DNA of 64,000 bases from Rubrobacterales bacterium (lineage in GTDB: Bacteria; Actinomycetota; Rubrobacteria; Rubrobacterales; Rubrobacteraceae), in NCBI GenBank assembly GCA_038199875.1, contig JBBPYN010000076.1, forward strand, positions 7,036 through 71,035, in the 5' to 3' direction. Below the pieces are notes generated by a model. That model worked only from the letters and a program-made list of their open reading frames with translations. It searched no databases and was not told the origin of the DNA. Both the position numbers and the translations under genes were made by a program. Shown here one piece after another: positions 12,387 to 46,044 of the stretch; positions within the stretch are counted from its first letter, which is position 1, and each line of letters begins with the position of its first letter.

Positions 12387-13820
12387 TCACGCCAGCCCTG
12401 ACGCACCGACCAGCGCGGAGAGGGGGATGATGAGCAGGCCGAACAGCGTGGCGAGAACGGCCAGGATGTAGACGGAGAACCTGACGGCGCCACTCCCTTT
12501 CGACCTCACCGTCTCGGTCGTCGGCTCCTCGAGGACCATGTTGCGGATGATGCCGAAGTAGTAGGGGACGGAGAGGACCGTGTTGACGACGAGCGCCCCG
12601 ACGACGACGTAGACCAGGACAGAACCCGACTGGGCGCCCGCGATGATGATCCAGAGCTTCCCGAAGAACCCAGAGAGCGGGGGTATGCCGACTAGCGCGG
12701 CCATGAACAGGGCCATGCTAGCCGCCACGCCCGGGTTGGTCCTGACGAGCCCGTTATAGTTCTTGGCGTCCTCGCCGACGAGGTCTATGACGAGGAAGGC
12801 GCCCATGTTCATAACGGCGTAGGCCGCTGTGTAGATCAGGACCGCCTGCACGGCGAAAGCGACCCCTGCCCCCTGGAGCGCGGCGAATGCGGCCAGTATG
12901 TATCCCGAGTGGGCCACGGAGCTGTAGGCGAGCATCCGCCTGACGTTGCGCTGCCTGAGGGCGAAGAGGTTACCGACGAACATCGTGAGGATCGCGAGGA
13001 AGGCCATCACGGCGGTCCAGGTCGACGCCGCCTCAGGCATGCCTTCGAGGAGTATCCGAAGGAGTACCGCGAAGGTCGCGGCCTTCGGGCCGACCGACAG
13101 GAAGGCAGCCGCGCTCGTCGGGGCGCCCTGGTAGGCGTCGGGGGTCCAGAAGTGGAAGGGCGCGGCAGAGAGCTTGAAGGCGAAACCCGAGATCATCAAC
13201 ACGAGCCCGAGGACGGCGACCGGGGTGAGGTTGCCCGTGAACGTCTCGGCCACGTCAGAGAGCATCGCCGAGCCGGAGACGCCGTAGATCAGGACAAGCC
13301 CGTACAGGAGCACGGAGGAGGCGATGACGCCCGTGATCAGGTACTTCATCCCGCCCTCGGCGCTCTCGCGGCGGCTCCTGTCGAAGGCGACCATAGCGTA
13401 TGAAGGTATGGTCGCGAGCTCGATGGAGAGGAAGATGCCGAAGAGGTCACGCATGGAGACGAGCAGCGTCGCACCGAGCACGACGGAGAGGATGAGCGTC
13501 AGGTACTCAGGGCCGTCGCCAGTCTCGCCCGACCAGCGGGCAGCAGCCAGCACGGCGAAGAAGGCCGAGCCTGCGACTATCAGCTTGAAGTAAAGCGCGA
13601 AGCCGTCGACCACATAACCGCCGCCGAAGAAGCTGCCTGAGAAGCCCGTCGCGAGCAGGACGGCCGCGCTGGAGAAAACAGCCAGCGTCCCGAGGGCGGC
13701 AAGGCCTGCCGAGATACCGACGTTGCTCTCGCTAAAGGCTCCGACCATGAGGACCAGGATCACGAACCCCGTCGAGATCAGCTCGGGGAGAAGCGCGACG
13801 ATCGTTTGTCCCGTGACCAC
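12387..13820 (-). CDS. nuoN: Complex I subunit N
   Basis: SIELATIPSY, EGGMKYL, FKLSAAPFHFWTPDAYQGAPT, RMLAYSSVAHSGY. Confidence 0.95.
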   Translation of the reverse strand: MVTGQTIVALLPELISTGFVILVLMVGAFSESNVGISAGLAALGTLAVFSSAAVLLATGFSGSFFGGGYVVDGFALYFKLIVAGSAFFAVLAAARWSGETGDGPEYLTLILSVVLGATLLVSMRDLFGIFLSIELATIPSYAMVAFDRSRRESAEGGMKYLITGVIASSVLLYGLVLIYGVSGSAMLSDVAETFTGNLTPVAVLGLVLMISGFAFKLSAAPFHFWTPDAYQGAPTSAAAFLSVGPKAATFAVLLRILLEGMPEAASTWTAVMAFLAILTMFVGNLFALRQRNVRRMLAYSSVAHSGYILAAFAALQGAGVAFAVQAVLIYTAAYAVMNMGAFLVIDLVGEDAKNYNGLVRTNPGVAASMALFMAALVGIPPLSGFFGKLWIIIAGAQSGSVLVYVVVGALVVNTVLSVPYYFGIIRNMVLEEPTTETVRSKGSGAVRFSVYILAVLATLFGLLIIPLSALVGASGLA

Positions 13821-15274
13821 TAGCTACCCCCTATCACGGCCAGGATGGCGTCGACGGCCGGGCGTTGGATGCTTATGAGCAAGGCTGGGAAGACGCCGAG
13901 CACGACGAGCAGCAAGGCGAGCGGCACCAGGGAGGCCATCTCGGCCGGCCCCGCGTCGTCTATCTGCTCGTAGGCAGGGCTTTCGATGGGACCGAAGATC
14001 ACACGCGCCAGCATGTAAAGCAGGTACATGGCTGAGAGTATGATCCCGAACGACGCGAGCACCCCTTGAACCGGGAAAGTCGCGTACCCGCCCATGATGC
14101 TCATGAATTCGGAGACGAAGACGGCGAGCCCCGGAAGCCCCATCGCGGCGAGCGCGCCGAGGGCGAGGAGCCCACCGGCCCACGGCATCCTGGCAGCGAG
14201 CCCCCCGAGCTCGCTGATGCGGCGCGTCCCAGTCCTTGCCGCTATCACGCCGACAAGGATAAAGAGCAGCGCAGAGTAGAGACCGTGCGAGACCTGCTGG
14301 AAGACAGCACCGTTCAGGCCAACGGCGTTACTCGAGGCGGCCCCGAGCAGGATGAAGCCAAGGGTTCCAATTGATGAGTAGGCGACGAGCGCCTTCAGGT
14401 CTGGTTGAAGGAACGCGACGAACGACCCGTAGATAATGTTGATAACCCCGAAAGCGGCGAGGTAAGGGAGAAAAGGCTCGACGCCCTGCGGCAGAAGCGG
14501 GATCGCCACCTTGATAAGGCCGTACGTACCCAGCTTCGGCAGGACCCCCGAGAGAAGCACGTTGGTCGAGGTCGGGCTCGAGACGTACACGTCCAGAAGC
14601 CAACTGTGCAGCGGCACCGCGGGAACCTTGATCAGCAGCCCGAACAGTATCGGGGCCGCAACCGCGACCTGCGCCGCCCGAGAGAGGCCGCCCCCGCCCC
14701 CGAGTGAACTTATGGAGTAGGTGTCGGCGAGGATGCCGAAGGCAAGGAAGCCTGCCAGCATCACCGTCGAGCCGAGGAACGTGTAGATGAAGAACTTGAT
14801 CGCGGCAGGACGACGGTTCTCATCGCCCCAGACGCCGACGAGCAGATACATCGGGATCAGCGTGATCTCGAAGAACACGTAGAACAGGATCAGGTCCTGC
14901 GCAGCGAAGACGCCGAGCATCCCAACCTCGGCGACGAAGAGCGCGGCGAAGTACTGCCTGAGGTTACGGTTCACGTCCCCCGAAGCCACGATCGCTATGA
15001 CGGTGAGGAAGGTGGAGAGGAAGAACATCCCGAACCCGAGCCCGTCGAGCCCGACCCTGTAGCCTATGTTGAGCGACCGTATCCAGGTCAGGTCCTGAGT
15101 GAGGGCCGCGACGCCCAGATCATCGCCGAAGGCGAAGTAGATGTAGATCGCGAGGATCAGGGGCACGGCAGCCACCCCGAGGGCGGCGTAGCGCACGAGG
15201 CGCTCATCGTCGGGCAGGAGAAGCATGAGTACAGCGCCGAGAAGCGGGATCAGGATGGTCACCGTCGTTATCAC
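13820..15274 (-). CDS. nuoM: Complex I subunit M
   Basis: LFYVFFEITLIPMY, IKVPAVPLHSWL, KLGTYG, LPGLAVFVSEF. GTG at 15274 overlaps the nuoL TGA. Confidence 0.95.
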   Translation of the reverse strand: MITTVTILIPLLGAVLMLLLPDDERLVRYAALGVAAVPLILAIYIYFAFGDDLGVAALTQDLTWIRSLNIGYRVGLDGLGFGMFFLSTFLTVIAIVASGDVNRNLRQYFAALFVAEVGMLGVFAAQDLILFYVFFEITLIPMYLLVGVWGDENRRPAAIKFFIYTFLGSTVMLAGFLAFGILADTYSISSLGGGGGLSRAAQVAVAAPILFGLLIKVPAVPLHSWLLDVYVSSPTSTNVLLSGVLPKLGTYGLIKVAIPLLPQGVEPFLPYLAAFGVINIIYGSFVAFLQPDLKALVAYSSIGTLGFILLGAASSNAVGLNGAVFQQVSHGLYSALLFILVGVIAARTGTRRISELGGLAARMPWAGGLLALGALAAMGLPGLAVFVSEFMSIMGGYATFPVQGVLASFGIILSAMYLLYMLARVIFGPIESPAYEQIDDAGPAEMASLVPLALLLVVLGVFPALLISIQRPAVDAILAVIGGS

Positions 15275-17253
15275 AGGCGGGCCCCCACGGCGAAGGCGGC
15301 GATGGTTATCAGGGCTATGAGCCCGACGACGATCACCGCGTACTGCGCCCCTACGATTACCGCGATGATCAAGACGCTCAGCAGGATGAACAGGGCGTAG
15401 TTCTGGACCCCGCCGCTCTGCAGCCGCTGAAGAAGTCCCCCCGTCCCGAGCGTCCCGCGTCCGACCTCGCCGACCAGACCGCCGATGACGTTCCGGTCGA
15501 AGCCACGGGTAGCTCGTCCGAGCCACATCGCGAACCGCACGAACGTCGCGCCGTAGAGATCGTCGAAGTACCAGCCCTTGTCCAGGAACTTGTGAAGCCA
15601 CGAGAACCGTCTGGCGAGCGCCCCTGCCTGCTCCGGCCTCGCGACGTAGAGCGCGTAGGCCAGGCCAATCCCAAGGACCGCGACGAGGACCGAGACCCCG
15701 CCTAGCGCGTAGCTAAAGCCGTGCTCTTCGACGTTGAGCGTCGAGACGGCGAACTCGCTGGGATGCACGAACTCGGCGAAGTAATCAGGGATCGGGAGCC
15801 CGAACCCCTCTGGTATGCCCACCCACCCGCTCACGATAGATAGGAAGGCAAGGAGCATCATCGGGCCCGTCATTATCCCTGGCGACTCCGCCGCCTCCCT
15901 CGCCCCATCGGTACGAGGTTCGCCGGTAAAGGCGAGGAAGATAGCGCGGAAGATGTAGAAAGCCGTGAGGAACACCGTCAAGAGCGCCATGCCGAACAAG
16001 ACGTAGTAGTGCTCCTCGTAGGCCGAGGCGACGATGGCGTCCTTGGACCAGAACCCGGAGAAGGGGATGATCCCGGAGAGCGAGAGTCCCGCTATGACCA
16101 CCGCCACGAAGGTAAGAGGCATCTTCCGCCTGAGCCCCCCCATCTCGAAGAGGTTGTAGGAGTCCATCGCGTAGATGATGCTGCCGGCGCACAGGAAGAG
16201 GAGCGCCTTGAAGAAGGCGTGGTTGTAGAGGTGGAAGATGCCTGCTGAGTAAGAACCGATCCCGAGGCCTAGCATCATGTACCCGAGCTGGGAGACGGTG
16301 GAGTAGGCGATCACACGTTTGATGTCCTTCTTGACCAGCGCCATGGTCGCCGCCATCAGCGCGGTAAAGCCGCCGATGTAGGCGACGACGAGCATGGCCG
16401 TTGGGCTCTGCACGAAGATGTCGTAAGTGCGAGCAACGAGGTAGACACCAGCTGCGACCATGGTCGCCGCGTGGATCAGGGCGCTAACCGGCGTCGGGCC
16501 CTCCATCGCGTCGGGGAGCCATACGTGCAAGGGGAACTGCGCGCTCTTGCCTACGGCGCCGATGAAGACGAGGATCACGGCCGCCGTGAACAGGGAGCCG
16601 CCGATAAACCCGGCCTGGGCCGCCTCAGAGATGTCCGAGAAGGCTGTCGAGCCCGTCGTCGCCCAGAAGATGATGATCCCGACGAACAGCGCGGCATCCC
16701 CGACCCTGGTAACAACAAAGGCCTTGAGCGCGGCGTCGCGGGCAGAGGGCTTCTCGAACCAGTGCCCGACAAGCAGGTACGAGCACAGGCCGACGAGCTC
16801 CCAGAAGATGTAGAGTTGGATGAAGTTCGGGGCAAGCACGAGCCCGAGCATCGAGGCCGTAAACAGGTTGAGCACCGCGTAGAACCAGGCGAAGCGTTTG
16901 TCGCCCTCCATGAAAGCCCCTGAGTAGAGCTGGATCATGAGGCTCACGAAGCTCACCACCACGAGCATCACCGCGGCGAGCCCGTCGATAAGAACGCCCA
17001 TCGAGAACGAACCGCCCGCGCCGAGGTCTATCCAGTTCACGGAGAACTCTATTGGCGCCCCGCCGCCTGGGACTATCCCGGCCACGAACAGAAGGGCGAA
17101 GACGGAGAAGACGAGGGAGATAGTTACCCCGAGGATGGCCACGTACTGGGCGTTCTCCTTCAGGAGGCGTCCGAAGAAGACCAGCACGAGGAATACCAGC
17201 GCGGGGAGCGCCGGAATCGCCGTTATGATCAGCTGTTGGCCTACTGTCTGCAC
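15271..17253 (-). CDS. nuoL: Complex I subunit L
   Basis: WELVGLCSYLLVGHW, GKSAQFPLHVWLPDAMEGPTPVSALIHAATMVAAG, HAFFKALLFL. Confidence 0.96.
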   Translation of the reverse strand: MQTVGQQLIITAIPALPALVFLVLVFFGRLLKENAQYVAILGVTISLVFSVFALLFVAGIVPGGGAPIEFSVNWIDLGAGGSFSMGVLIDGLAAVMLVVVSFVSLMIQLYSGAFMEGDKRFAWFYAVLNLFTASMLGLVLAPNFIQLYIFWELVGLCSYLLVGHWFEKPSARDAALKAFVVTRVGDAALFVGIIIFWATTGSTAFSDISEAAQAGFIGGSLFTAAVILVFIGAVGKSAQFPLHVWLPDAMEGPTPVSALIHAATMVAAGVYLVARTYDIFVQSPTAMLVVAYIGGFTALMAATMALVKKDIKRVIAYSTVSQLGYMMLGLGIGSYSAGIFHLYNHAFFKALLFLCAGSIIYAMDSYNLFEMGGLRRKMPLTFVAVVIAGLSLSGIIPFSGFWSKDAIVASAYEEHYYVLFGMALLTVFLTAFYIFRAIFLAFTGEPRTDGAREAAESPGIMTGPMMLLAFLSIVSGWVGIPEGFGLPIPDYFAEFVHPSEFAVSTLNVEEHGFSYALGGVSVLVAVLGIGLAYALYVARPEQAGALARRFSWLHKFLDKGWYFDDLYGATFVRFAMWLGRATRGFDRNVIGGLVGEVGRGTLGTGGLLQRLQSGGVQNYALFILLSVLIIAVIVGAQYAVIVVGLIALITIAAFAVGARL

Positions 17254-17263
17254 GGGTTCCCCT

Positions 17264-17623
17264 CTAGCCTCTCATCGAGGTTACTTCGTCGACGTTCACG
17301 GTGCGCCGCGAGCGGAACACGGCGAGCACTATAGCAAGTCCAACGGCGATCTCAGCCGCCGCTATGGCGATCACAAGCACCGCGTAGCTGACCCCGAGGC
17401 CACCGGCACCCGGAAGATAGTCGGCGAAGGCGACCAGCGTCAGGTTGACGCCGTTTATCATAAGCTCCACACACATGAAGATGACGACGGCGTTGCGCCG
17501 GATCAGAGCCCCCCACGCCCCGATGGCGAACAGGATCGCCCCGACGACGAGGTAACCCTCAAGCGGCGGCGCGGAGACGAGAGCGTCGAGAAACTGCTGC
17601 ACCTGGCTAGGCATCTGGGGCAT
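17264..17623 (-). CDS. nuoK: Complex I subunit K
   Basis: FMCVELMINGVNL, AAAEIAVGLAI. Confidence 0.94.
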   Translation of the reverse strand: MPQMPSQVQQFLDALVSAPPLEGYLVVGAILFAIGAWGALIRRNAVVIFMCVELMINGVNLTLVAFADYLPGAGGLGVSYAVLVIAIAAAEIAVGLAIVLAVFRSRRTVNVDEVTSMRG

Positions 17624-18159
17624 TACTCGCGCACCCCCCGGTCGACGCCCTCCCCCATCTTGCGGCGGCTCACGACGATCGCCGCGACGACGGCCACGAG
17701 GAGCAGCACCGAGGCGACCTCGAAGAGCAGGGTGAAGATCTCAGCCCCCTGGCTCACACCTAGCAGGTCCCGCCCGAAAGCTCCGACCTCGCGCGGCCCG
17801 TTCCCGGCCTTCACTCCAGCCCAGTCTTCGGCGGCGAGCACGTACGCGAGGAAGAGTCCGACGCCTATGGCCACGAGGAAGCCAGGCCAGAACTGGCGGT
17901 TAATGATCGTACGGTATCGCCTGACCTGCGGCTTCTGGGTGAACATGATGCCGAACAGGATCACCACCGTTACGGCGCCGACGTAGATGAGGACCTGGAA
18001 CGCGGCGAACGCAGGGGCGTTCAGCATCACGAAGTACCCGGAGATGCCGAGGAATGACCCTGACATAAACAGCGCCGAATGCACGACGCTGCGGCTCAAA
18101 ACCACCCCGAGCGCCGAGACGAGCGTCATCCCGGCCAGGAAAACGAACGCGGCCGTCAA
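17623..18159 (-). CDS. nuoJ: Complex I subunit J
   Basis: FQVLIYVGAVTVVILFGIM, FEVASVLLL. Confidence 0.93.
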   Translation of the reverse strand: MTAAFVFLAGMTLVSALGVVLSRSVVHSALFMSGSFLGISGYFVMLNAPAFAAFQVLIYVGAVTVVILFGIMFTQKPQVRRYRTIINRQFWPGFLVAIGVGLFLAYVLAAEDWAGVKAGNGPREVGAFGRDLLGVSQGAEIFTLLFEVASVLLLVAVVAAIVVSRRKMGEGVDRGVRE

Positions 18160-18665
18160 GCTGCTTCGTCCCCGGTTCTGGGTTGCTCCACGGTCTTGGG
18201 AGCCTTCTTGCCTGTTGGTTTTTTCTTCTTTTTCACGGTTGGCTTGGGGTCAACGGTCGGGTCGACTGGACGCTCGCCGAACTGCCTGGCCAGTTCAAGG
18301 CGGTTGTAGGCCTGCGCCTCGAACTCCTCGGTGTGGTAGATGCAGTTGACCGGGCAGACCTCGACGCAAAGCGAGCAGTACATGCAGCGCGAGTCGTCGA
18401 TCACGAACCCGATAGGATAAGGCTTCGGTTTGCCTGACCCGTCGGCGTCGCGCTTGGTCTGCTCGATCGAGATGCAGTGGTCCGGGCAGATCCTCATGCA
18501 CTGCAAACAAGCGATGCAGCGGTCCATGTCGACCGTAAGCATCCCGCGGCTCCGTTCTGGGAGGTCGCGTTTGTACTCGGGGTACTGGCGTGTGATCTTC
18601 TGCCCGAAGAGGTGCCTCAAGGTCACCCCCATCCCCTTCATAATGCCCTGTCCGACTTGTGGCAT
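18156..18665 (-). CDS. nuoI: Complex I subunit I (2x[4Fe-4S]) with Lys-rich C-terminal tail
   Basis: CIACLQCMRICP and CMYCSLCVEVCP; GGAGG RBS 5 nt before the ATG at 18665. Confidence 0.95.
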   Translation of the reverse strand: MPQVGQGIMKGMGVTLRHLFGQKITRQYPEYKRDLPERSRGMLTVDMDRCIACLQCMRICPDHCISIEQTKRDADGSGKPKPYPIGFVIDDSRCMYCSLCVEVCPVNCIYHTEEFEAQAYNRLELARQFGERPVDPTVDPKPTVKKKKKPTGKKAPKTVEQPRTGDEAA

Positions 18666-18674
18666 CAAAACCTC

Positions 18675-19676
18675 CTAGAAAATCAGTATCGCGCCGGCCG
18701 TGACGAACAGCCAGATCAGGGTTGCGGGGACGAGTATCTTCCAGCCGAGGTCCATGAGCTGGTCCATCCTGAGGCGGGGCACGCTCCACCTTATCCACTG
18801 GAAGGTGAACATGATCAGCGCCGTCTTGATCCCGAACCAGACCCAGTTGAAGTGCCCGAGGTCGAGGAAGGGAAGCGGCGGCTGCCAGCCGCCAATGAAG
18901 AGCGTGACGGTGATCGCCGACATGACGGCCATCGAGGCGAACTCGGCGGCCTGTATGAGGGCCCAGGTCATCCCCGAGTACTCGACCATGAAGCCGCCCA
19001 CGATCTCGCTCTCCCCTTCAGGCAGGTCGAAAGGAACCCGCTTTACCTCGGCGAGCCCCGAGATGTAGAAGGTTATGAACATCGGGAGCTGAGGCAGGAA
19101 GTACCAGGTCCAGATCGTATCCCCCTGCGCCTCGACCACGTCCGCGAGCGAGAGGCTTCCAGTAAGCATAACTACGCCGAGGAGGCTCAGGATCAGGGGC
19201 ACTTCATAAGAGATCATCTGCGCGGCCCCGCGCAGTGCGCCAAGCAGCGAGAACGCGGAGCGGCTCCCGTAGCCGGCCATAACGACGCCGAGAGCTCCTA
19301 TGGAGGTTATCGCGACGAAGAACAGTATCGCGACGTTGAGGTCGGCGACGACCGCGTCTGGGGCGAAAGGTACGACCAGCCACACGAGCGCGGCCGGTAT
19401 GAACATGGCTATCGGCGCCCCGAGGAAGACCCAGAAGTCCGACCTTCCGGGCGCGACGTTCTCTTTGGAGAACAGCTTGAAGACGTCGGCCGCCGGCTGC
19501 AGAAGACCGCGCGGCCCGACCCTGTTCGGGCCGAAGCGGAGGTGGATGTATCCAGAGACCTTCCTCTCGGCCATCGTCAGGACGGCGGCGAGGTTGAGCA
19601 CGAGGAAGAGGACAGCCCCGAAGGAGATGAGCAGCCGTATCGGCTCCATTTCCAGTAGGTTGAGGACAGTCTGCAT
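18675..19676 (-). CDS. nuoH: Complex I subunit H
   Basis: AERKVSG...RFGPNRVGP.GLLQP.AD..K, RGAAQMISYE, PFDLPEGESE, PRLRMDQLM. Confidence 0.96.
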   Translation of the reverse strand: MQTVLNLLEMEPIRLLISFGAVLFLVLNLAAVLTMAERKVSGYIHLRFGPNRVGPRGLLQPAADVFKLFSKENVAPGRSDFWVFLGAPIAMFIPAALVWLVVPFAPDAVVADLNVAILFFVAITSIGALGVVMAGYGSRSAFSLLGALRGAAQMISYEVPLILSLLGVVMLTGSLSLADVVEAQGDTIWTWYFLPQLPMFITFYISGLAEVKRVPFDLPEGESEIVGGFMVEYSGMTWALIQAAEFASMAVMSAITVTLFIGGWQPPLPFLDLGHFNWVWFGIKTALIMFTFQWIRWSVPRLRMDQLMDLGWKILVPATLIWLFVTAGAILIF

Positions 19677-20864
19677 CTACTTGTCCCACCCGCCGGAGAC
19701 GGGGTCCACGAGGCCCATGATCGGCATGATGTCAGGCAGGTAATGTCCAGGCACTATCTCCTGCAAGAGCTGCATGTTGCAGAAGCTCGGGTCGCGGTAA
19801 TGGACCCTGTAAGGGGTGTCCGAGCCGTCAGAGACGACGTGGACGGCGTACTCGCCGCGCGGGCTCTCCACCCTGCCGAAGCCCTCGCCCTCGGCTGGCC
19901 TTATGCGGCGGCCCGTGTCCCCCATGACCTCGCCCTCGGGCATCTGCTCGAGGCACTGTTTGATCAGGCGTATGCTCTGCAGACACTCCGCTATGCGCAC
20001 CCTGTAAGAAGCCTCGACGTCGCCAGCCGTGTCCGTGATGACCTCGAACTCCAGCTCGGGATACACGCTGTAGGGATAGTCGAGCCTGATGTCGAAGTCC
20101 ACGCCCGTGCAGCGCAGGGCTGGGCCGGTCACACCCATCTCGACGGCCTGCTCCTGGGTCATATTCCCAACGTTTCGGGTGCGTGAGATAAAGATCTCAT
20201 TCCCCGCAATAAGGTCAACGAAGTCCCTCTGGAAGTGGTCCTCGAGGCTCTCGATGTAGTCCCAGATCTTCTGGGGTATATCGGGCGGCAAATCGGCCTT
20301 GACGCCGCCTATCCTGATGTAGTGATACATCATCCGTGCGCCTGTTACGGCCTCGAAGATGGACTGTATGCGCTCCCTCTCGCGGAAGGCGTAGAGGATC
20401 GGGGTGAAGGCCCCGAGCTCGAGCATGAGGAAACCGATGGAGGGGATGTGGCTCGCGAGCCGCATGAGCTCGCACATGAGCACGCGGATGTACTCGGCCC
20501 TCGGTGGTATCTCGACGTCGAGTAAATCTTCGACCGCTAGCACGTAGCCGTGCTCGTTGTGCATGTTGGCGAAGTAGTCGAGCCTGTCCGTCAGCGGGAT
20601 GACCGCCGGATACATGCGGTTCTCGGCGATCTTCTCCTGACAGCGGTGCAGATATCCCATCACGGGGTCGCACCTCACGACGGTCTCGCCGTCGAGCTCC
20701 AGGATGAGCCTGAGAAGCCCGTGCATCGCGGGGTGCTGGGGCCCCATGTTCATGTCTATGGTCTCTAGCCCGAACTCGTCCCTGATGTCGGGGCTTACCA
20801 GGCGGCTGCTCGCGGGCTCGGTGAGCGCGCCCTCGTGGTGTGCGCGGCGTTCTTCGCTAAGCAT
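19677..20864 (-). CDS. nuoD: Complex I subunit D
   Basis: [31 protein letters not shown]. No NiFe-binding CxxC pairs. Confidence 0.95.
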
Positions 20865-20868
20865 AACC

Positions 20869-21360
20869 CTACCTCAGTCCCTCGAAGGTGCGCTTGGTGC
20901 TGATCTCGAAGCTCTTGAGCAGCGGGTGGTGGTCGAAGTGGTCCTGCCACATGTACGTCCTGCGCAGGTCGGGATGACCCGCGAAGGCCACACCGAACAT
21001 GTCGTAGGCCTCCCTCTCGTGCCAGTTCGCCGTGGGGTAACTCTTGGTTGCGGTCCCGATCACAGGCTCATCACCCTTGATGGTAGTCTTGACCCTGACG
21101 CTGGCTCCCCTGAAATCCATGAGCTCATAAGTCAGCTCGAAAGACCCCTGTCTGTCCACGACCGTGATAAACGAGAGGTGCGGGATGCCTAAAGCCTCGC
21201 GCGCGGTCGCGAGCACGGCAGGCACGTCGCCTGGAAGGGCGACGACCAGCACCACGTTATCCATGATCTCCGACTCTTCCAGGCCGTGCCTGTTGTTGAA
21301 GCCATCCAGGTAGCGTTGAAGCCGGGTCTGGAGATCCCCCTCCGGCAACGAGAGGGCCAC
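20869..21360 (-). CDS. nuoC: Complex I subunit C (short)
   Basis: [24 protein letters not shown]...HPLLK. Confidence 0.93.
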
Positions 21361-22134
21361 CTAGGCGTTCTCCTTGTTCTCTTTGCCGTTGGCCGAACCG
21401 TTCTCGGCGGCCTCGGCTTCAGCGGCCTTCTTCGCCCTCGCCTCTTCCTTGAGCCTCTTCTTCACTTCTGGCGGGACCCAGCCGACGTCGGTCTGGGAGG
21501 CCGGCGGCATGCCAGCGCGCTCGAAGACGTAGGTCCGCTTTAGCGGACGGATGCCTTCGAGCCTGGGGGCCTTGCCCTCGCTGATCTCGGTGTACTCCCG
21601 CTCGGGCAGGTACTCGTTGATGGTGCCGTCCTCGTCGACGAGCGCGGGACGCGGCCTCTCATAGCCGACCTGCTGGTCGCGTTCTATCTTCTTCTGGAGC
21701 GTCATGATCCCGAAGATGAGCGCCTCGGGACGCGGTGGGCATCCGGGCACGTACACGTCTACGGGTATAACCCTGTCGGCCCCCATAAGCACCGAGTACC
21801 CGTCAAGGAAGGGGCCGCCCGAGATCGCACACGCACCCATCGCTATGACCCATTTGGGCTCAGGCATCTGCTCGTAGAGGCGGGTCATCCGCTCTGCCAT
21901 CTTGGTAGAGACGGTGCCCGAGACGATCATGACATCAGCCTGCCTGGGCGAGGCCGCGAAGAAGCCGGCGCCGAAGCGGTCGAGGTCGTTGTGGGCCATG
22001 CCTGTGGACATCATCTCTATCGCGCAACAGGCAAGGCCGAACTGGAGCGGCCACAGCGAGTTCTTGCGGGCCCAGTTGAAGAGCTTGTCCGTGCTCGTTG
22101 TGATGATGTTAGGCTCGTTGAACTGCTGCATCAC
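21361..22134 (-). CDS. nuoB: Complex I subunit B with ~100-aa C-terminal extension
   Basis: [35 protein letters not shown]. Confidence 0.95.
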
Positions 22135-22481
22135 ACCCATTTAAGGGCCCCCTTCTTCCAGGCGTAGATCAAACCGACGGCCAGGATCGAGACGAAAATG
22201 ACCATCTCGACGAAACCGTAGACACCGAGGCTCTTGTAGATGACGGCCCAGGGATAGAGGAAGGCCGCCTCCACGTCGAAGACGAGGAAGAGCAGCGCGA
22301 AGACGTAATAGCGGACGGGGAAGGGACGCCAAGGGTCCGTGACCGTCATCTCGCCCGTCTCGTAGTTCTGCGCCTTGGTGCTCGACCTCCGACTGGGTGA
22401 GATAAGCCGCGCCAGAACCAGCGTGGTCGCCACGAAACCCGTGATCAGCAACATGAAGATCCCCACGTAGAGGTACACCAT
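22131..22481 (-). CDS. nuoA: Complex I subunit A
   Basis: [37 protein letters not shown]. Confidence 0.95.
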
Positions 22482-22717
22482 CCCGTAAGATGCTTCCTGT
22501 TGCAATAGACCTAGCGCCAAAACCAGCCTTTCTACCCAATAACCAACCGAAATATACCCTCGCAAGCAGCAACTTTCAAGAAGCTACTAGCAGTAGCAAG
22601 CTACTAACAACAGCACGCTCTGGCCTACGACGCCGTGCTGACAAGCCGTCCGCAGGGCGGTGTGCTTACATGTTAGACTGCTTTTCGGGTTCTACGGCAT
22701 TGACAAAGGGAGAGCGT

Positions 22718-22981
22718 GTGGCTTACGTGATAACGGAAGCTTGTATCGGGACGAAGAACACGGCCTGTGTCGGGGCCTGTCCTGTTGACTGCATCTACGA
22801 CGCCGGCGACCACTTCATAATCAACCCCGCGGAGTGCATCGACTGCTCCATGTGCATGCCGGAGTGTCCGGTTGAGGCCATCTACCCCGGTGACGAGGTC
22901 CCTGAGGACATGCAGTACTACGTGAGCCGGGCCGCCGAGTTCGACTACTCGAACACCGCGCCTGGCGTCGAAGTCAATTAG
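22718..22981 (+). CDS. 7Fe-type dicluster ferredoxin ([3Fe-4S]+[4Fe-4S], FdxA-like)
   Basis: C-x7-C-x3-CP (CIGTKNTACVGACP) and CIDCSMCMPECP; GGGAG RBS before the GTG at 22718. Confidence 0.9.
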   Translation: MAYVITEACIGTKNTACVGACPVDCIYDAGDHFIINPAECIDCSMCMPECPVEAIYPGDEVPEDMQYYVSRAAEFDYSNTAPGVEVN

Positions 22982-23008
22982 CCGGACGACTCTTTAGGGC
23001 GGGGGATC

Positions 23009-24169
23009 ATGGCCGATTTAAAGCAACGCAGCCTCGAAGAAGTCAAGGCCTTGAGCGTCGATGAGGCCGTGGAGATCATACGCCAGGCTGGTATCGTCGG
23101 CGCTGGGGGCGGTGGTTTCCCGACTTACTTCAAATACAAGTCCCCCCTGCCGCACCTGCTCGTGAACGCAACCGAAAGCGAACCAGGTTACTGGGGAGAC
23201 AAGCTCGTACACAAGGAGAACCTCGAGGAGTTCCTCCAGGTCTTCGATGCCCTGAAGGCGATCTTCGGCTTCGAGCAGATCTCCTTCTGCGTCCACGAGA
23301 AGGACAGGGAGTGGTTCGCCGGGTACGCCGAGCACTCGGGCGAGGGCGTCTTCGACGTTCGCTACGTGCCAAACACGTACGCCCTTGGCGAGGAGAAGAC
23401 CCTGGTCAAGCACGCGACCGAGACCAGGGTGCCCAGGTTCGTGGACAACCCGGACGGGAGTAGGCGCCCCGGGATGCCGCCTGACGTCGGCAAGGTCGTC
23501 AACAATACGGAGTCTCTGCTCAACGTCTACAACGCGCTCTTCCTCGGCAAGCCCCTCACCACCAAGTTCTTCACCGTGTACGGCGAGGAGGTTGACACGA
23601 AGGTCTTCGAAGTGCCGATCGGCGCCTCGGTGAGCGAGGTACTGGGGATCGCGGGCCTAAACGTGGAGAACTCAGGTCACCTCACGGTCCTTGACGGCGG
23701 GCCATACCTGCACGATGTGAGCATCGCGGAGCTTGGTACTGGAGACGCCTACGTGAGGCGGATGACCAACTCCTTGTTCGTGATCCCACATGGCAGGCAG
23801 GGTAAGGAGTACGCCGAGATCGAGACAGAGTGCCCGGAGGAAGGCATCGTCTCCCTGGTCGGCAAGATCTCGGGCGTAAATCTGCCCCTCGGCGGCGGTC
23901 TGCTGAAACCGGCCACGCCGCTCATCTCCGGGGGCGACGAGGTTGAGTACGAACAGAAGATAGGAGAGCCCGTCGACGATGGCTTCTCCGTCGGGGTCTG
24001 GGCGAGTATTGGGGGTGAGATCTCCTCCATGGAGAACGGCATCGTCGCCATCTCCGGTGGCGCGATAGCCAAGGAAGAGGCCGAGGCAGAAGCCGAGCCG
24101 TCCATGGCCGGCGGCTCGCAACCGCGGGGAGAGGCTGAGCCATTCAGCGAGGCCGGATCGAGTAAGTGA
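23009..24169 (+). CDS. RnfC/PduS/NuoF-like flavoprotein (FMN/NADH domain + SLBB + C-terminal barrel-sandwich) without Fe-S motif
   Basis: AGIVGAGGGGFPT, NATESEP, YALGEE, VNNTESL, VPIG (SLBB), GGP, C-terminal VGVWASIGGEI. Only two Cys. Confidence 0.75.
   Translation: MADLKQRSLEEVKALSVDEAVEIIRQAGIVGAGGGGFPTYFKYKSPLPHLLVNATESEPGYWGDKLVHKENLEEFLQVFDALKAIFGFEQISFCVHEKDREWFAGYAEHSGEGVFDVRYVPNTYALGEEKTLVKHATETRVPRFVDNPDGSRRPGMPPDVGKVVNNTESLLNVYNALFLGKPLTTKFFTVYGEEVDTKVFEVPIGASVSEVLGIAGLNVENSGHLTVLDGGPYLHDVSIAELGTGDAYVRRMTNSLFVIPHGRQGKEYAEIETECPEEGIVSLVGKISGVNLPLGGGLLKPATPLISGGDEVEYEQKIGEPVDDGFSVGVWASIGGEISSMENGIVAISGGAIAKEEAEAEAEPSMAGGSQPRGEAEPFSEAGSSK

Positions 24170-28232: not shown

Positions 28233-28233
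<1 letters not shown>
27781..28233 (-). CDS. atpC: ATP synthase epsilon subunit
   Basis: VITPE...GDLGVLVDHSPLVS...GFFKV; last gene of the atp operon. Confidence 0.92.
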
Positions 28234-29966
<1,733 letters not shown>

Positions 29967-30833: not shown

Positions 30834-32435
30834 CTAGCTCCCCTCTTCCTCGCCGTTTTCTTGCTCGGAGCCGTCCTCTTCCTCCGGGGATACGCCTGCG
30901 AGGCTCGTCTGCTCGGGCTCGAAGTTGGAGTTGAAGTTCTCCGCGGCCTCCTTGAGCTTCTCCTCGTTCTCGTCGGAGAGCTGCTGTTCGGAGCGGATCG
31001 TATCGAGCAGGTCGCCGTGGGTGTCGCGCATAAAGTCGCGGAACTGCCGCTCCCAGTCAGGGACGGCGCCGGTGTCTACGTCGTCCAGGTAGCCGTTAGA
31101 CGCGGCGTAGAGGACCACGACCTGCTCCTCGACCGGCATGGGGTCGCGCTCGTCCTGCTTCAGGATCGCCGTCAGGCGTTCGCCACGGTTCAGCGTCTGC
31201 TGCGTCGCCTTGTCCAGGTCGCTCCCGAACTGGGCGAAGCTCGCGAGCTCGCGGTACTGGTTCAGGTCCAGACGCAAGGTGCCTGCGACATCCTTCATGG
31301 CTTTGATCTGGGCCGAGGAGCCCACGCGGCTCACGGAGTTGCCCGTGTCGATGGCGGGGCGCTGGCCCGAGTTGAAGAGGTCGGAGTCAAGGAAGATCTG
31401 GCCGTCCGTGATGGAGATGACGTTGGTCGGGATGTAAGCCGAGATGTCGCCGGCCTTGGTCTCGATGACAGGCAACGCCGTGAGAGACCCGCCCCCTGCA
31501 TCTTCCGAGAGCTTGGCCGCACGCTCCAGAAGGCGGGAGTGCAAATAGAAGACGTCGCCAGGATACGCCTCGCGGCCCGGCGGGCGCCGGAGTAGAAGCA
31601 TCATCTGACGGTAGGCGACGGCGTGCTTGGAGAGGTCGTCGTAGATCAGGAGCGAGTCCTCGCCACGGTTCATGAAGAACTCGCCGATGGCGCAACCAGC
31701 GTAAGGAGCCAGGTACTGCAGCGTCGCTGACTGGGCCGCAGAGGCGTTCACGACGGTGGTGAACTCCAGGGCGCCGGTCTCCTCGAGGGCGGAGACGACG
31801 CCTGCTACCGTCGAGTCCTTCTGACCGATAGCGACGTAGACGCACTTCACGTCCTGGTCGGCCTGGTTGATGATGGTGTCGAGTAGGATCGAGGTCTTGC
31901 CCGTCTTCCTGTCTCCGATGACCAGTTCTCGCTGTCCGCGTCCGATCGGGATCATGGCGTCTATGGCCTTGATGCCGGTCTGGAGCGGCTGCTTGACCGG
32001 CTGGCGCCTGATGATGCCTGGCGCCACGATCTCTACGGGAAGCGTCTGCTCCGCCTCGATCTCACCCTTACCGTCGATCGGCCGCCCGAGGGCGTCGATG
32101 ACGCGGCCGAGCACCCCCTCGCCGACGGGAACGCTCGCGAGGCGTTCGGTGCGCGTTACCGTGTTTCCTTCCTGGATGTGGGTATCGTCGCCGGCGACGA
32201 TGACGCCGACGTTGTCCTCCTCCAGGTTCAGCGCGAGCCCCGTGATCTTCTCTCCCCTGGAGTCCTCGAACTCAAGCATCTCCTGGTACATCGCGTTGGT
32301 AAGGCCGTGGACGCGCGCGATGCCGTCCCCGACCTCGAGTACCTGCCCGACCTCCTCGGTCCTGACGCGGTTCTCGTAATCCGTAATAGCGCCTTTTAGA
32401 ATGGAGGAGATCTCCTCCGGCCTGAGCCTGCCCAC
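30834..32435 (-). CDS. atpA: ATP synthase alpha subunit
   Basis: [46 protein letters not shown]. Confidence 0.97.
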
Positions 32436-44727: not shown

Positions 44728-46044
44728 TCACGGCCCTTTCTGCGCCACCGCCTCCCGCGCGAGACCCAGAAGCTCCGTGTCGAGGCCATCTCCAACGGGG
44801 TCGTTGTCACAGTACAGTACGGGCTTCCCTTCCTCTGAGCCCCGGCGCGTAACGACGTCAACCGCGGCGGCTTTTATCTCCGTGAGGTAGGCCTCGACCC
44901 CTGACATCGCGTCGAGGTCATCGGCCAGGCGCCGCCTGTCGGACAGGTTCCCAGAGGAGGCGACTACCTCGCAGCCGTACTGCTCCTCCAGATGCCTGGC
45001 GAGCGTGTCTAGAACGGCTGGCGGCGCGGTCGAGACGTATCCGACCCGCATCCCCTCGATGTTTCCGACCGGCCGCGGCCTGAAGACCGTTGGGATCACG
45101 GTCAGGTCAGGCCGTACGTGGCCGATAGCCTTCACGAGGCCATCTACCTTCTCGGGTGCTGCCATGGGCTCCTCGCTCATGGTGAGGAGGACGAGGTCCG
45201 AGAGGAGCAGCCGGTAGGTACCGAGGAAACCAACGATGTACTCGGGGTCCTGATGGGCGCCCGCGACGAGCACCCGCCCCTCGACGCGGACGGGAGGCAT
45301 CGCCGCTCCGGACCCGTCGAAGACCGTGACCAGCGTGTCGAGGCGGTTGGCGATCTCCGCTCCCTCCACCACGTTGGAGACGAAGGGCTGCCCGGCGAGG
45401 CCGCCGCCGCACCTGCGGCATCCGACGGTGGTGACCCTGCTCAGGGCCGCCGTCTCATAGTAGTCGCTCGCCGCATGCGCCCCGCGGCCGAGGGCCTCGA
45501 GAAGGTACTCGCTCCCGACCTCCAGTTTGTGGCCCTCGATGATCTCGGGGTGGGGTGGCCCACCGCGGCCCATCGAGACCACGCCCGGATCGAAGCCCTC
45601 GCTGGCGAGAAGGCGCGCCAGGTAGCCAGAGACAGCCGTCTTTCCTACCCGCTTGCCGGTCCCGATCACGGCCAGGGATGGCTTGGTCGAGGCAGGCCGA
45701 AGGTCAGGGGGCTTGAGCTCGAAGTCGCTGCCGAGGTAGCGCGCCCCGGCGTAAAGGGCGAGCGAAGCGATCCTCATCCGCTCCCTGTAGCCGACCACGG
45801 GCTCATCGGAGAGGTCGACGACGACGTCCACCTCGTACTGGGATAACGCCCGCTCTACCGCGGAGACGGGGTCAGAGCCTTTGACCAGCGGAACGCCGTA
45901 ATCCGTGCCCGCCTTGAGCTTCTCGGTCCCCCCGAGGAAGGCCGCGGCCACCGCATTGGCCCCTAGCGACTTTTGCACGCTTTGCATGGCATCGAGGACG
46001 ACCGGAGGGTAGTGCTCGCCGTCGATCAGGAACAGGGCCAGCAC
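44728..46044 (-). CDS. cpgS: Cyclic 2,3-diphosphoglycerate synthetase-like protein
   Basis: N-terminal LIDGEHYPPVV, GTGKRVGKT P-loop, RRCGGGLAG, TEIKAAAVDVV, motifs I recognise from archaeal cDPGS. Confidence 0.85.
   Translation of the reverse strand: MLALFLIDGEHYPPVVLDAMQSVQKSLGANAVAAAFLGGTEKLKAGTDYGVPLVKGSDPVSAVERALSQYEVDVVVDLSDEPVVGYRERMRIASLALYAGARYLGSDFELKPPDLRPASTKPSLAVIGTGKRVGKTAVSGYLARLLASEGFDPGVVSMGRGGPPHPEIIEGHKLEVGSEYLLEALGRGAHAASDYYETAALSRVTTVGCRRCGGGLAGQPFVSNVVEGAEIANRLDTLVTVFDGSGAAMPPVRVEGRVLVAGAHQDPEYIVGFLGTYRLLLSDLVLLTMSEEPMAAPEKVDGLVKAIGHVRPDLTVIPTVFRPRPVGNIEGMRVGYVSTAPPAVLDTLARHLEEQYGCEVVASSGNLSDRRRLADDLDAMSGVEAYLTEIKAAAVDVVTRRGSEEGKPVLYCDNDPVGDGLDTELLGLAREAVAQKGP

Follow-up and report, generated by a model that had tools for sequence, protein, structure and literature searches.

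A ferredoxin–flavoprotein gene pair divergent from an eleven-gene complex I operon in Rubrobacteraceae: a possible substitute for NuoEFG

The DNA analysed here, referred to as the window, is a stretch of 64 kb from a Rubrobacterales bacterium (contig JBBPYN010000076.1). It harbors an operon for complex I (nuo) and, on the opposite strand, a two-gene unit coding for a ferredoxin (fdx) and a flavoprotein. Coordinates are positions in the window unless a locus number (L) is given. Genes were assigned by translation of open reading frames (ORFs) combined with Pfam and NCBIfam searches. Eleven ORFs between 12387 and 22520 on the minus strand correspond to nuoA, B, C, D, H, I, J, K, L, M and N, and all 11 core nuo genes thereby lie in one cluster in canonical order. 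Neighboring genes overlap by 1 to 10 nt or are separated by gaps of at most 10 nt. The stop codon of nuoD (19677) directly abuts the start codon of nuoH (19676). The genes nuoE, nuoF and nuoG are not located between them, and the abutting codons leave no room for these genes in the operon. For nuoA, the TTG start at 22520 gives a protein of 129 amino acids, which is the length of NuoA in relatives.

The cysteines ligating cluster N2 are present in NuoB, the NiFe cysteine motifs are absent from the NuoD translation (C-terminus ...DPVSGGWDK) and three antiporter-like subunits are encoded, which argues for a genuine complex I core and against a membrane-bound hydrogenase. Moreover, NuoD, NuoL, NuoM and NuoN scored above the cut-offs of complex I models and far below hydrogenase models. 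When all 64 kb were scanned for motifs in six frames, no NuoE-type or NuoG-type cluster motif was detected. The same scan revealed a single G.GG.GFP loop, located in the flavoprotein, and three CxxCxxCxxxC motifs, one in the ferredoxin and two in NuoI. The nuo cluster of the window is a complete 11-gene complex I core devoid of NuoEFG (EFG-less). Actinobacteria have been counted among the groups with an 11-subunit complex I (Moparthi and Hägerhäll 2011), and no homologues of nuoE, nuoF or nuoG were identifiable in the genome of Rubrobacter radiotolerans (Albuquerque et al. 2019, PMC6741124).

Two segments of the encoded subunits are not part of canonical NuoI and NuoB. NuoI carries a lysine-rich C-terminal tail (KKKKKPTGKKAPK..., residues ~138–170, nt 18159–18257), which is conserved across Rubrobacter NuoI proteins, and NuoB ends in a charged extension of low complexity comprising about 100 amino acids (nt 21364–21663), the length of NuoB varying from 242 to 339 amino acids among relatives. 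Homologues at 85–99% identity derive from metagenome-assembled genomes (MAGs) of soil Rubrobacter/Rubrobacteraceae. The locus belongs to a conserved housekeeping block composed of secA, hpf, comF, manC, nuoN to nuoA, fdx and the flavoprotein gene, an alpha/beta hydrolase gene, an M20 peptidase gene, murA and the atp operon.

The divergent genes fdx and the flavoprotein gene are located on the same strand with a gap of 27 nt. The cysteines of the ferredoxin are spaced C-x7-C-x3-CP ... C-x2-C-x2-C-x3-CP, which is the pattern of 7Fe ferredoxins with one [3Fe-4S] and one [4Fe-4S] cluster. Its best NCBIfam matches were FdxA models, all of them below cut-off (FdxA_Actino, 86 versus 125 bits; FdxA_Protbact, 83.5 versus 135; FdxA_fam, 58.8 versus 65). 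The protein is strongly acidic with 15 aspartate and glutamate residues and 2 lysine and arginine residues.

The flavoprotein matched the Complex1_51K family (PF01512) above cut-off (E = 2.4e-26) and contains the sequence GIVGAGGGGFPT at residues 28–39. It is composed of the Complex1_51K domain for flavin mononucleotide (FMN) and NAD(P)H (residues 24–174), an SLBB-like region, a barrel-sandwich hybrid domain (residues ~291–346) and a disordered acidic tail. The RnfC_N match at residues 291–346 follows the 51K domain instead of preceding it on the N-terminal side. Chains of RnfC are the closest solved relatives by sequence (7zc6_C, E = 1e-23). Residues 13–234 align to RnfC 116–331 and residues 290–341 to its N-terminal barrel-sandwich domain (33–83). 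This match of C-terminal residues to an N-terminal domain points to a circular permutation. An AlphaFold2 model based on 13 sequences reached a mean predicted local distance difference test score of 84.9 and a predicted template modelling score of 0.85, with the last ~33 residues disordered. In a Foldseek search with this model RnfC ranked first (E = 6e-17), followed by HydB and NuoF.

Despite this likeness, the flavoprotein remained below the models of RnfC (TIGR01945, 119 bits versus a cut-off of 245.95), PrdC (TIGR04481, 99 versus 490) and NuoF (TIGR01959, 28 versus 558.65). The NuoF match covered residues 12–70 only and did not include the domain of the N3 [4Fe-4S] cluster. None of rnfA, B, D, E and G was found in the window or at syntenic loci. 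By these profile comparisons, the protein is neither RnfC, PrdC nor NuoF and is best described as a permuted, Fe-S-free RnfC-like protein. It possesses only two cysteines in total and no Fer4 Pfam match, indicating that it cannot hold the Fe-S clusters by which RnfC and NuoF take electrons from FMN and that its FMN would need an external acceptor. Four motifs (GxGGxGFPT, N-x-x-E-S-E-P-G-Y, Y-x-x-G-E-E and N-N-x-E) are invariant or nearly so in the family down to 29% identity and line up with the nucleotide-binding stretch of RnfC. Judging from the Thermus Nqo1/NuoF structures, we take these motifs to be the elements contacting FMN and NADH, and from their conservation we infer with good reason that the flavoprotein binds FMN and NAD(P)H. 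The family is small, comprising 37 clusters (50% identity) below 1e-30 among 1.84 billion representatives, with many fragments. Among the matches listed, no cluster member was labelled as R. radiotolerans. Its members are publicly annotated as 'RnfC' or 'proton-conducting membrane transporter', and a literature search found no description of the fdx–flavoprotein pair or of the permuted flavoprotein family.

The locus had been singled out by an earlier reading of the DNA sequence. The closely spaced nuoA-B-C-D-H-I-J-K-L-M-N operon of this original prediction, in which nuoD directly precedes nuoH and nuoEFG are missing, was confirmed by the ORFs, the Pfam/NCBIfam matches and the coordinates. The predicted distance of 236 bp to the opposite-strand pair holds for the ATG start of nuoA and shrinks to 197 bp with the TTG start. 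A 7Fe ferredoxin had been expected on the strand opposite to nuo, and a ferredoxin gene with 7Fe-type cysteine spacing is indeed present there. Finally, the proposed neighbor with a NuoF/RnfC-type FMN-NADH motif turned out to keep all four NuoF-type motifs and to adopt an RnfC/NuoF fold in the model.

Table 1. Genes and sequence elements of the nuo–fdx–flavoprotein locus and of the related nuoI2 clusters.
Feature	Position	Strand	Product length	Evidence and remarks
nuoN	12387–13820	−	477 amino acids	Antiporter-like membrane subunit; TIGR01770 NDH_I_N 353 bits, above cut-off
nuoM	13820–15274	−	484 amino acids	TIGR01972 NDH_I_M 484 bits; GTG start, 4-nt overlap with nuoL stop
nuoL	15271–17253	−	660 amino acids	NF005141 NuoL 654 bits, above cut-off
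nuoK	17264–17623	−	119 amino acids	NF004320 NuoK 101.6 bits, above cut-off
nuoJ	17623–18159	−	178 amino acids	Best NCBIfam matches are NuoJ models; Oxidored_q3 in syntenic orthologues
nuoI	18156–18668	−	170 amino acids	TIGR01971 NuoI E = 4.9e-30; two CxxCxxCxxxCP motifs
nuoH	18675–19676	−	333 amino acids	NuoH NCBIfam models 338 bits
nuoD	19677–20864	−	395 amino acids	NF004739 NuoD 439 bits, above cut-off; quinone-module subunit
nuoC	20869–21360	−	163 amino acids	Pfam Complex1_30kDa E = 6e-32
nuoB	21361–22140	−	259 amino acids	NF005012/TIGR01957 above cut-off; N2 ligands CC...C...CP
nuoA	22131–22520 (TTG) or 22481 (ATG)	−	129 or 116 amino acids	Oxidored_q4 E = 6.5e-37; NCBIfam NuoA matches
Divergent promoter region	22521–22717			Promoter scan, sequence, comparison with arrangement-A loci
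nuo promoter-like element	TTGAAA 22579–22574, 17-nt spacer, TATATT 22556–22551	−		Promoter scan
Palindrome GCTACTAGCAGTAGC (GCTAC-N5-GTAGC)	22583–22597			Just 5′ of the −35 of the nuo promoter-like element
fdx −10-like element and ribosome binding site	TAGACT 22674–22679; AAGGGAGAG at 22706	+		Promoter scan, sequence
fdx	22718–22981	+	87 amino acids	7Fe-type ferredoxin by cysteine pattern; proposed one-electron shuttle
Flavoprotein gene	23009–24169	+	386 amino acids	Predicted Fe-S-free, circularly permuted RnfC-like protein; Complex1_51K
nuoI2-fdx-flavoprotein cluster	L018 9035–11158 (R. taiwanensis); L088 9065–11167 (R. xylanophilus)	One strand		

Related loci were collected by scanning a genome collection with the family alignment, by local tblastn with the window proteins and by contig look-ups, and the distribution described here is that among the matches listed. 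Based on the positions of the nuo genes, fdx and the flavoprotein gene, four arrangements (A to D) were defined. Arrangement A, in which nuoA–N is divergent from fdx-flavoprotein, was present in the window, L001–L003, L084, L091 (a 3.2-Mb contig) and L092. It extends down to identities of 72% for the flavoprotein, 72% for the ferredoxin and 80% for NuoD, and the accession spacing on another MAG contig is compatible with the same order. L004 and L005 contain the pair on sequences too short to show the nuo operon. In arrangement B, a nuoI copy (nuoI2), fdx and the flavoprotein gene follow one another in the same orientation. This arrangement was found in R. taiwanensis (L018), R. xylanophilus DSM 9941 (L088), L006 and L085, with no further nuo gene within 10 kb. 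Orthologues of fdx, 70–93% identical, are located directly 5′ of the flavoprotein gene in every arrangement A and B locus.

R. taiwanensis carries arrangement B together with arrangement C, a nuoA–N operon without the pair (contigs SKBU01000001 and SKBU01000008). This operon is complete (L090 6178–16157) and includes its own nuoI, annotated with 148 amino acids. NuoI2 as a relocated operon nuoI was therefore rejected; it is a paralogue, i.e. a second copy. NuoI2 comprises 183 amino acids and keeps the entire NuoI core including the N-terminal segment, with 72–86% identity to operon-encoded NuoI. Common to the NuoI2 proteins is a 13-residue insertion in the lysine-rich tail. As the operon retains nuoI, the pair is accompanied by a second gene for the very subunit expected to take up its electrons. 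Two complex-I-linked layouts of a single-copy pair, one of them with an extra nuoI, are more than chance adjacency gives, and among the new evidence nothing speaks more strongly for a functional connection between the pair and complex I than this two-layout synteny.

A grouping of NuoI2 with the NuoI of arrangement A as one clade was considered, and the neighbor-joining tree (139 columns) did not resolve it. In this tree NuoI2 of R. taiwanensis groups with NuoI1 of the same species at 72% bootstrap. Comparison of the NuoI groups showed just two tail-proximal columns that separate NuoI2 and arrangement-A NuoI from the NuoI of pair-less operons. The flavoproteins differ at their C-terminus. A motif (P/L)RGEAEPF(S/Q/K)EA was found in all arrangement-A flavoproteins down to 72% identity and is missing from types B and D. 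In the window it reads PRGEAEPFSEA (nt 24122–24154) and lies within the disordered tail. Such a motif may be a docking peptide. Speculatively, it would be a candidate tether in arrangement A, and the 13-residue insertion of NuoI2 a candidate tether in type B.

The arrangement-A loci conserve the nuo promoter-like element, the palindrome and the TAGACT element 5′ of fdx. Of five further arrangement-A loci that were compared, four retain the palindrome arms GCTAC and GTAGC and vary in the spacer between them. One arm is off by one base in L003, and L004 is without the region. The palindrome looks like a transcription-factor site. A shared operator for nuo and fdx was also considered and is not supported, as the middle of the intergenic spacer is not conserved. 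At the arrangement B loci, nuoI2 is preceded by a leader of ~170 nt (L018 8850–9035 and the equivalents in L088, L006 and L085) with a conserved TAGTCT-type element (TGATAGTCTAAT), and three of these four leaders also contain a GC-rich hairpin ahead of a T-run. The leader may act as an attenuator or other regulatory leader. Rfam gave no match in the nuoI2 leader or in the nuoA–fdx intergenic region of the window, and no terminator-like site was found between nuoI2 and fdx. Contigs from four soil or biocrust metatranscriptome runs cover nuo genes, fdx and the flavoprotein gene at an identity of at least 90%, suggesting that both units are transcribed, with the reservation that DNA carry-over is possible and the depth of contigs reflects expression poorly.

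We propose NAD(P)H → FMN → ferredoxin → NuoI as a plausible candidate input route of this EFG-less complex I, and hold it tentatively, at somewhat less than an even chance. The 11 nuo genes would give rise to a complete quinone-reducing, proton-pumping complex I without N-module. The divergent operon would encode a 'split, permuted RnfC' consisting of a soluble flavoprotein and a separate 7Fe ferredoxin, which together would recreate the job that RnfC performs in a single polypeptide. The flavoprotein would bind FMN and oxidise NAD(P)H, and the ferredoxin would supply the Fe-S clusters that the flavoprotein lacks. FMN would hand single electrons to the acidic ferredoxin, probably to its higher-potential [3Fe-4S] cluster. 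From there, electrons would enter the complex at the exposed [4Fe-4S] clusters of NuoI (N6a/N6b), and the lysine-rich NuoI tail could help to capture the acidic ferredoxin. Transfer from NuoI to N2 in NuoB and on to menaquinone would go along with proton pumping by NuoL, NuoM and NuoN. In this scheme we infer the direction of flow, the ferredoxin as acceptor, NuoI as docking site and the mode of action as free shuttle or docked module.

Several observations weigh against such a route. The 7Fe type of the ferredoxin is predicted, and FMN binding of the flavoprotein deduced, from sequence patterns only. The designation of the flavoprotein as RnfC/PduS-like in the original prediction is borne out as a resemblance only: the protein stays below the RnfC, PrdC and NuoF cut-offs, its domains are permuted and the Fe-S clusters of these proteins are missing. 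The centre of the nuoA–fdx spacer varies in length and sequence among arrangement-A loci and each unit has promoter-like elements of its own; co-regulation is therefore not shown. In the Rubrobacteraceae loci of arrangement C (atp, murA, M20, nuoA–N, manC, comF, hpf, secA; L081–L083, L086, L087 and L090), the slot between the M20 peptidase gene and nuoA is empty of the pair, and the adjacency seen in the window clade may thus partly reflect inherited synteny. In arrangement D, represented by a Rubrobacteraceae clade (L007–L017), the flavoprotein gene (58–62% identity) stands alone, with no ferredoxin-type (CxxCxxCxxxCP) or nuo gene within ~10 kb; its conserved neighbors are polysaccharide synthesis genes, an acyltransferase gene and a lipid kinase gene. 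Distant members are solitary among housekeeping genes in Bipolaricaulota, a 'Thermotogae' MAG, Thermoplasmatota, a Methanobacteriota MAG, Myxococcales and three haloarchaeal genera. Around the Bipolaricaulota, Thermoplasmatota, haloarchaeal and Myxococcales members, neither a CxxCxxCxxxCP protein nor a nuo gene was found within ~10 kb. The link of the fdx–flavoprotein pair to complex I is real but lineage-restricted, and concerns part of one family.

These observations can be accommodated if the pair is a general NAD(P)H:ferredoxin oxidoreductase, a counterpart of FprA/FdxA or FNR/ferredoxin, which provides reduced ferredoxin for enzymes of biosynthesis or repair (P450s, IspG/H or Fe-S repair, for example) and came to lie beside nuo as a by-product of rearrangement without feeding complex I. 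The normally solitary position of the flavoprotein gene among housekeeping neighbors in most lineages, the empty slot beside nuoA in several Rubrobacteraceae and the separate promoters of the nuo and fdx units all favor it, as does the location of the R. xylanophilus copy among genes for Fe-S assembly, ScdA, hemerythrin and an AhpC-like protein. We regard a general reductase as unlikely, though deserving serious consideration. It leaves unexplained why a full-length NuoI paralogue, 72–86% identical, precedes the pair and why the single-copy pair occurs in two complex-I-linked layouts; to our knowledge, NuoI paralogues have no role outside complex I-type enzymes. The R. xylanophilus neighborhood, which also comprises narGH and genes for a major facilitator superfamily (MFS) transporter, a Crp-type regulator and Fer2, would also be compatible with a function in stress or anaerobiosis that has nothing to do with routine NADH oxidation, again a point against the proposed input route. 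Accordingly, NuoI2, ferredoxin and flavoprotein of the thermophiles might form a separate soluble oxidoreductase for nitrate, nitric-oxide or oxidative stress, with a likewise stress-related pair in the window. NorB-like and Fer2 genes near the nuoI2 cluster of L085 and the long conserved hairpin leader 5′ of nuoI2 point in the same direction. Yet the full NuoI2 core, at 72–86% identity, is compatible with continued assembly of NuoI2 into complex I, and the pair of the window adjoins nuo, atp and murA and not stress genes, which leaves a soluble stress enzyme highly improbable.

A different division of labor would result if the complex operated as a ferredoxin:menaquinone oxidoreductase. Ferredoxin would then be reduced mainly by 2-oxoacid:ferredoxin oxidoreductases, NADH would not be the main donor, and the flavoprotein would do no more than equilibrate the pools of ferredoxin and NAD(P)(H), possibly by passing electrons from ferredoxin to NAD(P)+. 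The [4Fe-4S] clusters of 7Fe ferredoxins have a potential too low for reduction by NADH, which speaks for this option, as do the position of fdx next to nuo and the combination of a basic NuoI tail with an acidic ferredoxin. Precedents are the ferredoxin-dependent NDH-1 and the proposed reoxidation of ferredoxin by haloarchaeal Nuo (PMC8305020; PMC4453560). However, no 2-oxoacid:ferredoxin oxidoreductase genes are located near the locus, and the fixed fdx–flavoprotein pair suggests that the flavoprotein is the dedicated partner of the ferredoxin; the direction of electron flow is not readable from sequence. We consider this option rather unlikely. The route from NAD(P)H through flavoprotein and ferredoxin to NuoI/NuoB, as it had been predicted originally, draws on the EFG-less operon, the four motifs, the Fe-S-free flavoprotein with adjacent fdx and the two nuo-linked layouts. 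The neighborhood conservation that had been put forward as a check was found in arrangements A and B, but it is confined to part of the genus, and this restriction applies to the route as well. Comparative genomics ties the pair to complex I as a substitute input suggestively, not conclusively.

Under a broader proposal, the permuted Fe-S-free family would provide the NAD(P)H input to EFG-less complex I generally and not just in Rubrobacter, docking on NuoI directly or via ferredoxin and using arrangement-specific segments as tethers. We think this very unlikely. Halobacteriales and Thermoplasmatales are among the groups described in the literature as having an EFG-less complex I with unknown donor. 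Conserved partner genes of the flavoprotein were looked for in distant lineages and none were found, the neighbors being housekeeping genes. Solitary distant copies from haloarchaea, Thermoplasmatota and Bipolaricaulota are located at L041 8385–9464, L055 1783–3024, L060 401–1438, L022 and L019–L021. One haloarchaeal copy bears a C-terminal Cys4 zinc-ribbon-like tail.

Apart from the nuo locus, the window displays a few further features. The only Rfam match is a transfer-messenger RNA (tmRNA; RF00023, 169 bits). The tmRNA gene and, by eye, an smpB-like ORF lie side by side (1068–1421 and 1473–2069, both minus strand), followed by RNase R and ftsEX, which is an ordinary trans-translation neighborhood. 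The beta and alpha subunits of ATP synthase end in long acidic Glu/Ser/Gly-rich tails of low complexity (28233–28450 and 30834–30930), which are unusual for F1. An ORF of 438 amino acids with high third-position GC content (44728–46044, minus strand) is located directly 5′ of a metallophosphoesterase gene and had no Pfam or NCBIfam match at 1e-5.

EFG-less 11-subunit complex I is widespread in bacteria and archaea, and the electron donor is unknown for most of these enzymes. According to the summary in PMC11238625, Moparthi and Hägerhäll (2011) searched without success for a donor protein common to these enzymes, and the donor of haloarchaeal complex I continues to be named among the open issues (PMC8305020). 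The locus described here provides a concrete two-protein donor candidate in a genus with cultured, fast-growing thermophiles (R. xylanophilus DSM 9941 and R. taiwanensis), and their nuoI2-fdx-flavoprotein operon, being compact, lends itself to expression, reconstitution and cryo-electron microscopy. If the proposed route is true, it would be a fourth independent solution for feeding complex I after NuoEFG, FpoF and ferredoxin/flavodoxin docking, and would show how an NADH module of the RnfC type may be divided between two proteins and rearranged in its domain order. If it is refuted, the family remains an undescribed Fe-S-free RnfC derivative with predicted NAD(P)H binding.

Among known systems, RnfC (PDB 7zc6_C, 9eri_C and 8ahx_C) is the best match of the flavoprotein in sequence and fold. 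Both share the FMN/NADH-binding 51K domain, the SLBB region and the barrel-sandwich hybrid domain, and RnfC likewise links NAD(H) to ferredoxin-type clusters. In contrast, the barrel-sandwich domain is N-terminal in RnfC and C-terminal in the flavoprotein, the C-terminal 2x[4Fe-4S] domain of RnfC is absent, and a separate 7Fe ferredoxin gene adjoins the flavoprotein gene where rnfABDEG are not found nearby. PrdC and PduS are RnfC-derived, stand-alone NADH-dependent donors to a partner enzyme, as is proposed for the flavoprotein, and PduS-type loci (L036 and L043) appeared as distant matches in the family scan. Unlike the flavoprotein, these proteins keep the barrel-sandwich domain N-terminal and PduS keeps its Fe-S clusters; the genomic contexts also differ.

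The N-module of NuoE, NuoF and NuoG does the same job as the one proposed here (NADH → FMN → Fe-S chain → NuoI) with the same four nucleotide-binding motifs of the 51K fold. The flavoprotein differs in that it has no N3 cluster domain, is not accompanied by NuoE or NuoG and has a gene that does not belong to the operon and lies on the opposite strand. Cyanobacterial and chloroplast NDH-1 is also an 11-subunit core without NuoEFG and receives its electrons directly from ferredoxin on the NdhI/NuoI side; the capture of an acidic ferredoxin by electrostatic attraction is a plausible common trait. However, NdhS/V/O-type accessory genes were not seen at the window locus, the ferredoxin is of the 7Fe bacterial type whereas that of NDH-1 is a plant-type 2Fe-2S protein, and a dedicated flavoprotein predicted to oxidise NAD(P)H is encoded together with it. 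Replacement of the N-module has precedents in Fpo with FpoF of Methanosarcina and in Campylobacter jejuni Nuo with Cj1574/Cj1575 and flavodoxin (PMC3144371, PMC4453560). FpoF, an Fe-S flavoprotein, oxidises F420H2 and has no relation to the 51K fold, and Cj1574/Cj1575 differ from the pair in lying inside the operon in the place of nuoE and nuoF and in using flavodoxin. By this comparison, the proposed function appears closest to the alternative inputs, namely ferredoxin-fed NDH-1, FpoF and flavodoxin with Cj1574/Cj1575, and the predicted chemistry closest to the NADH site of RnfC and NuoF.

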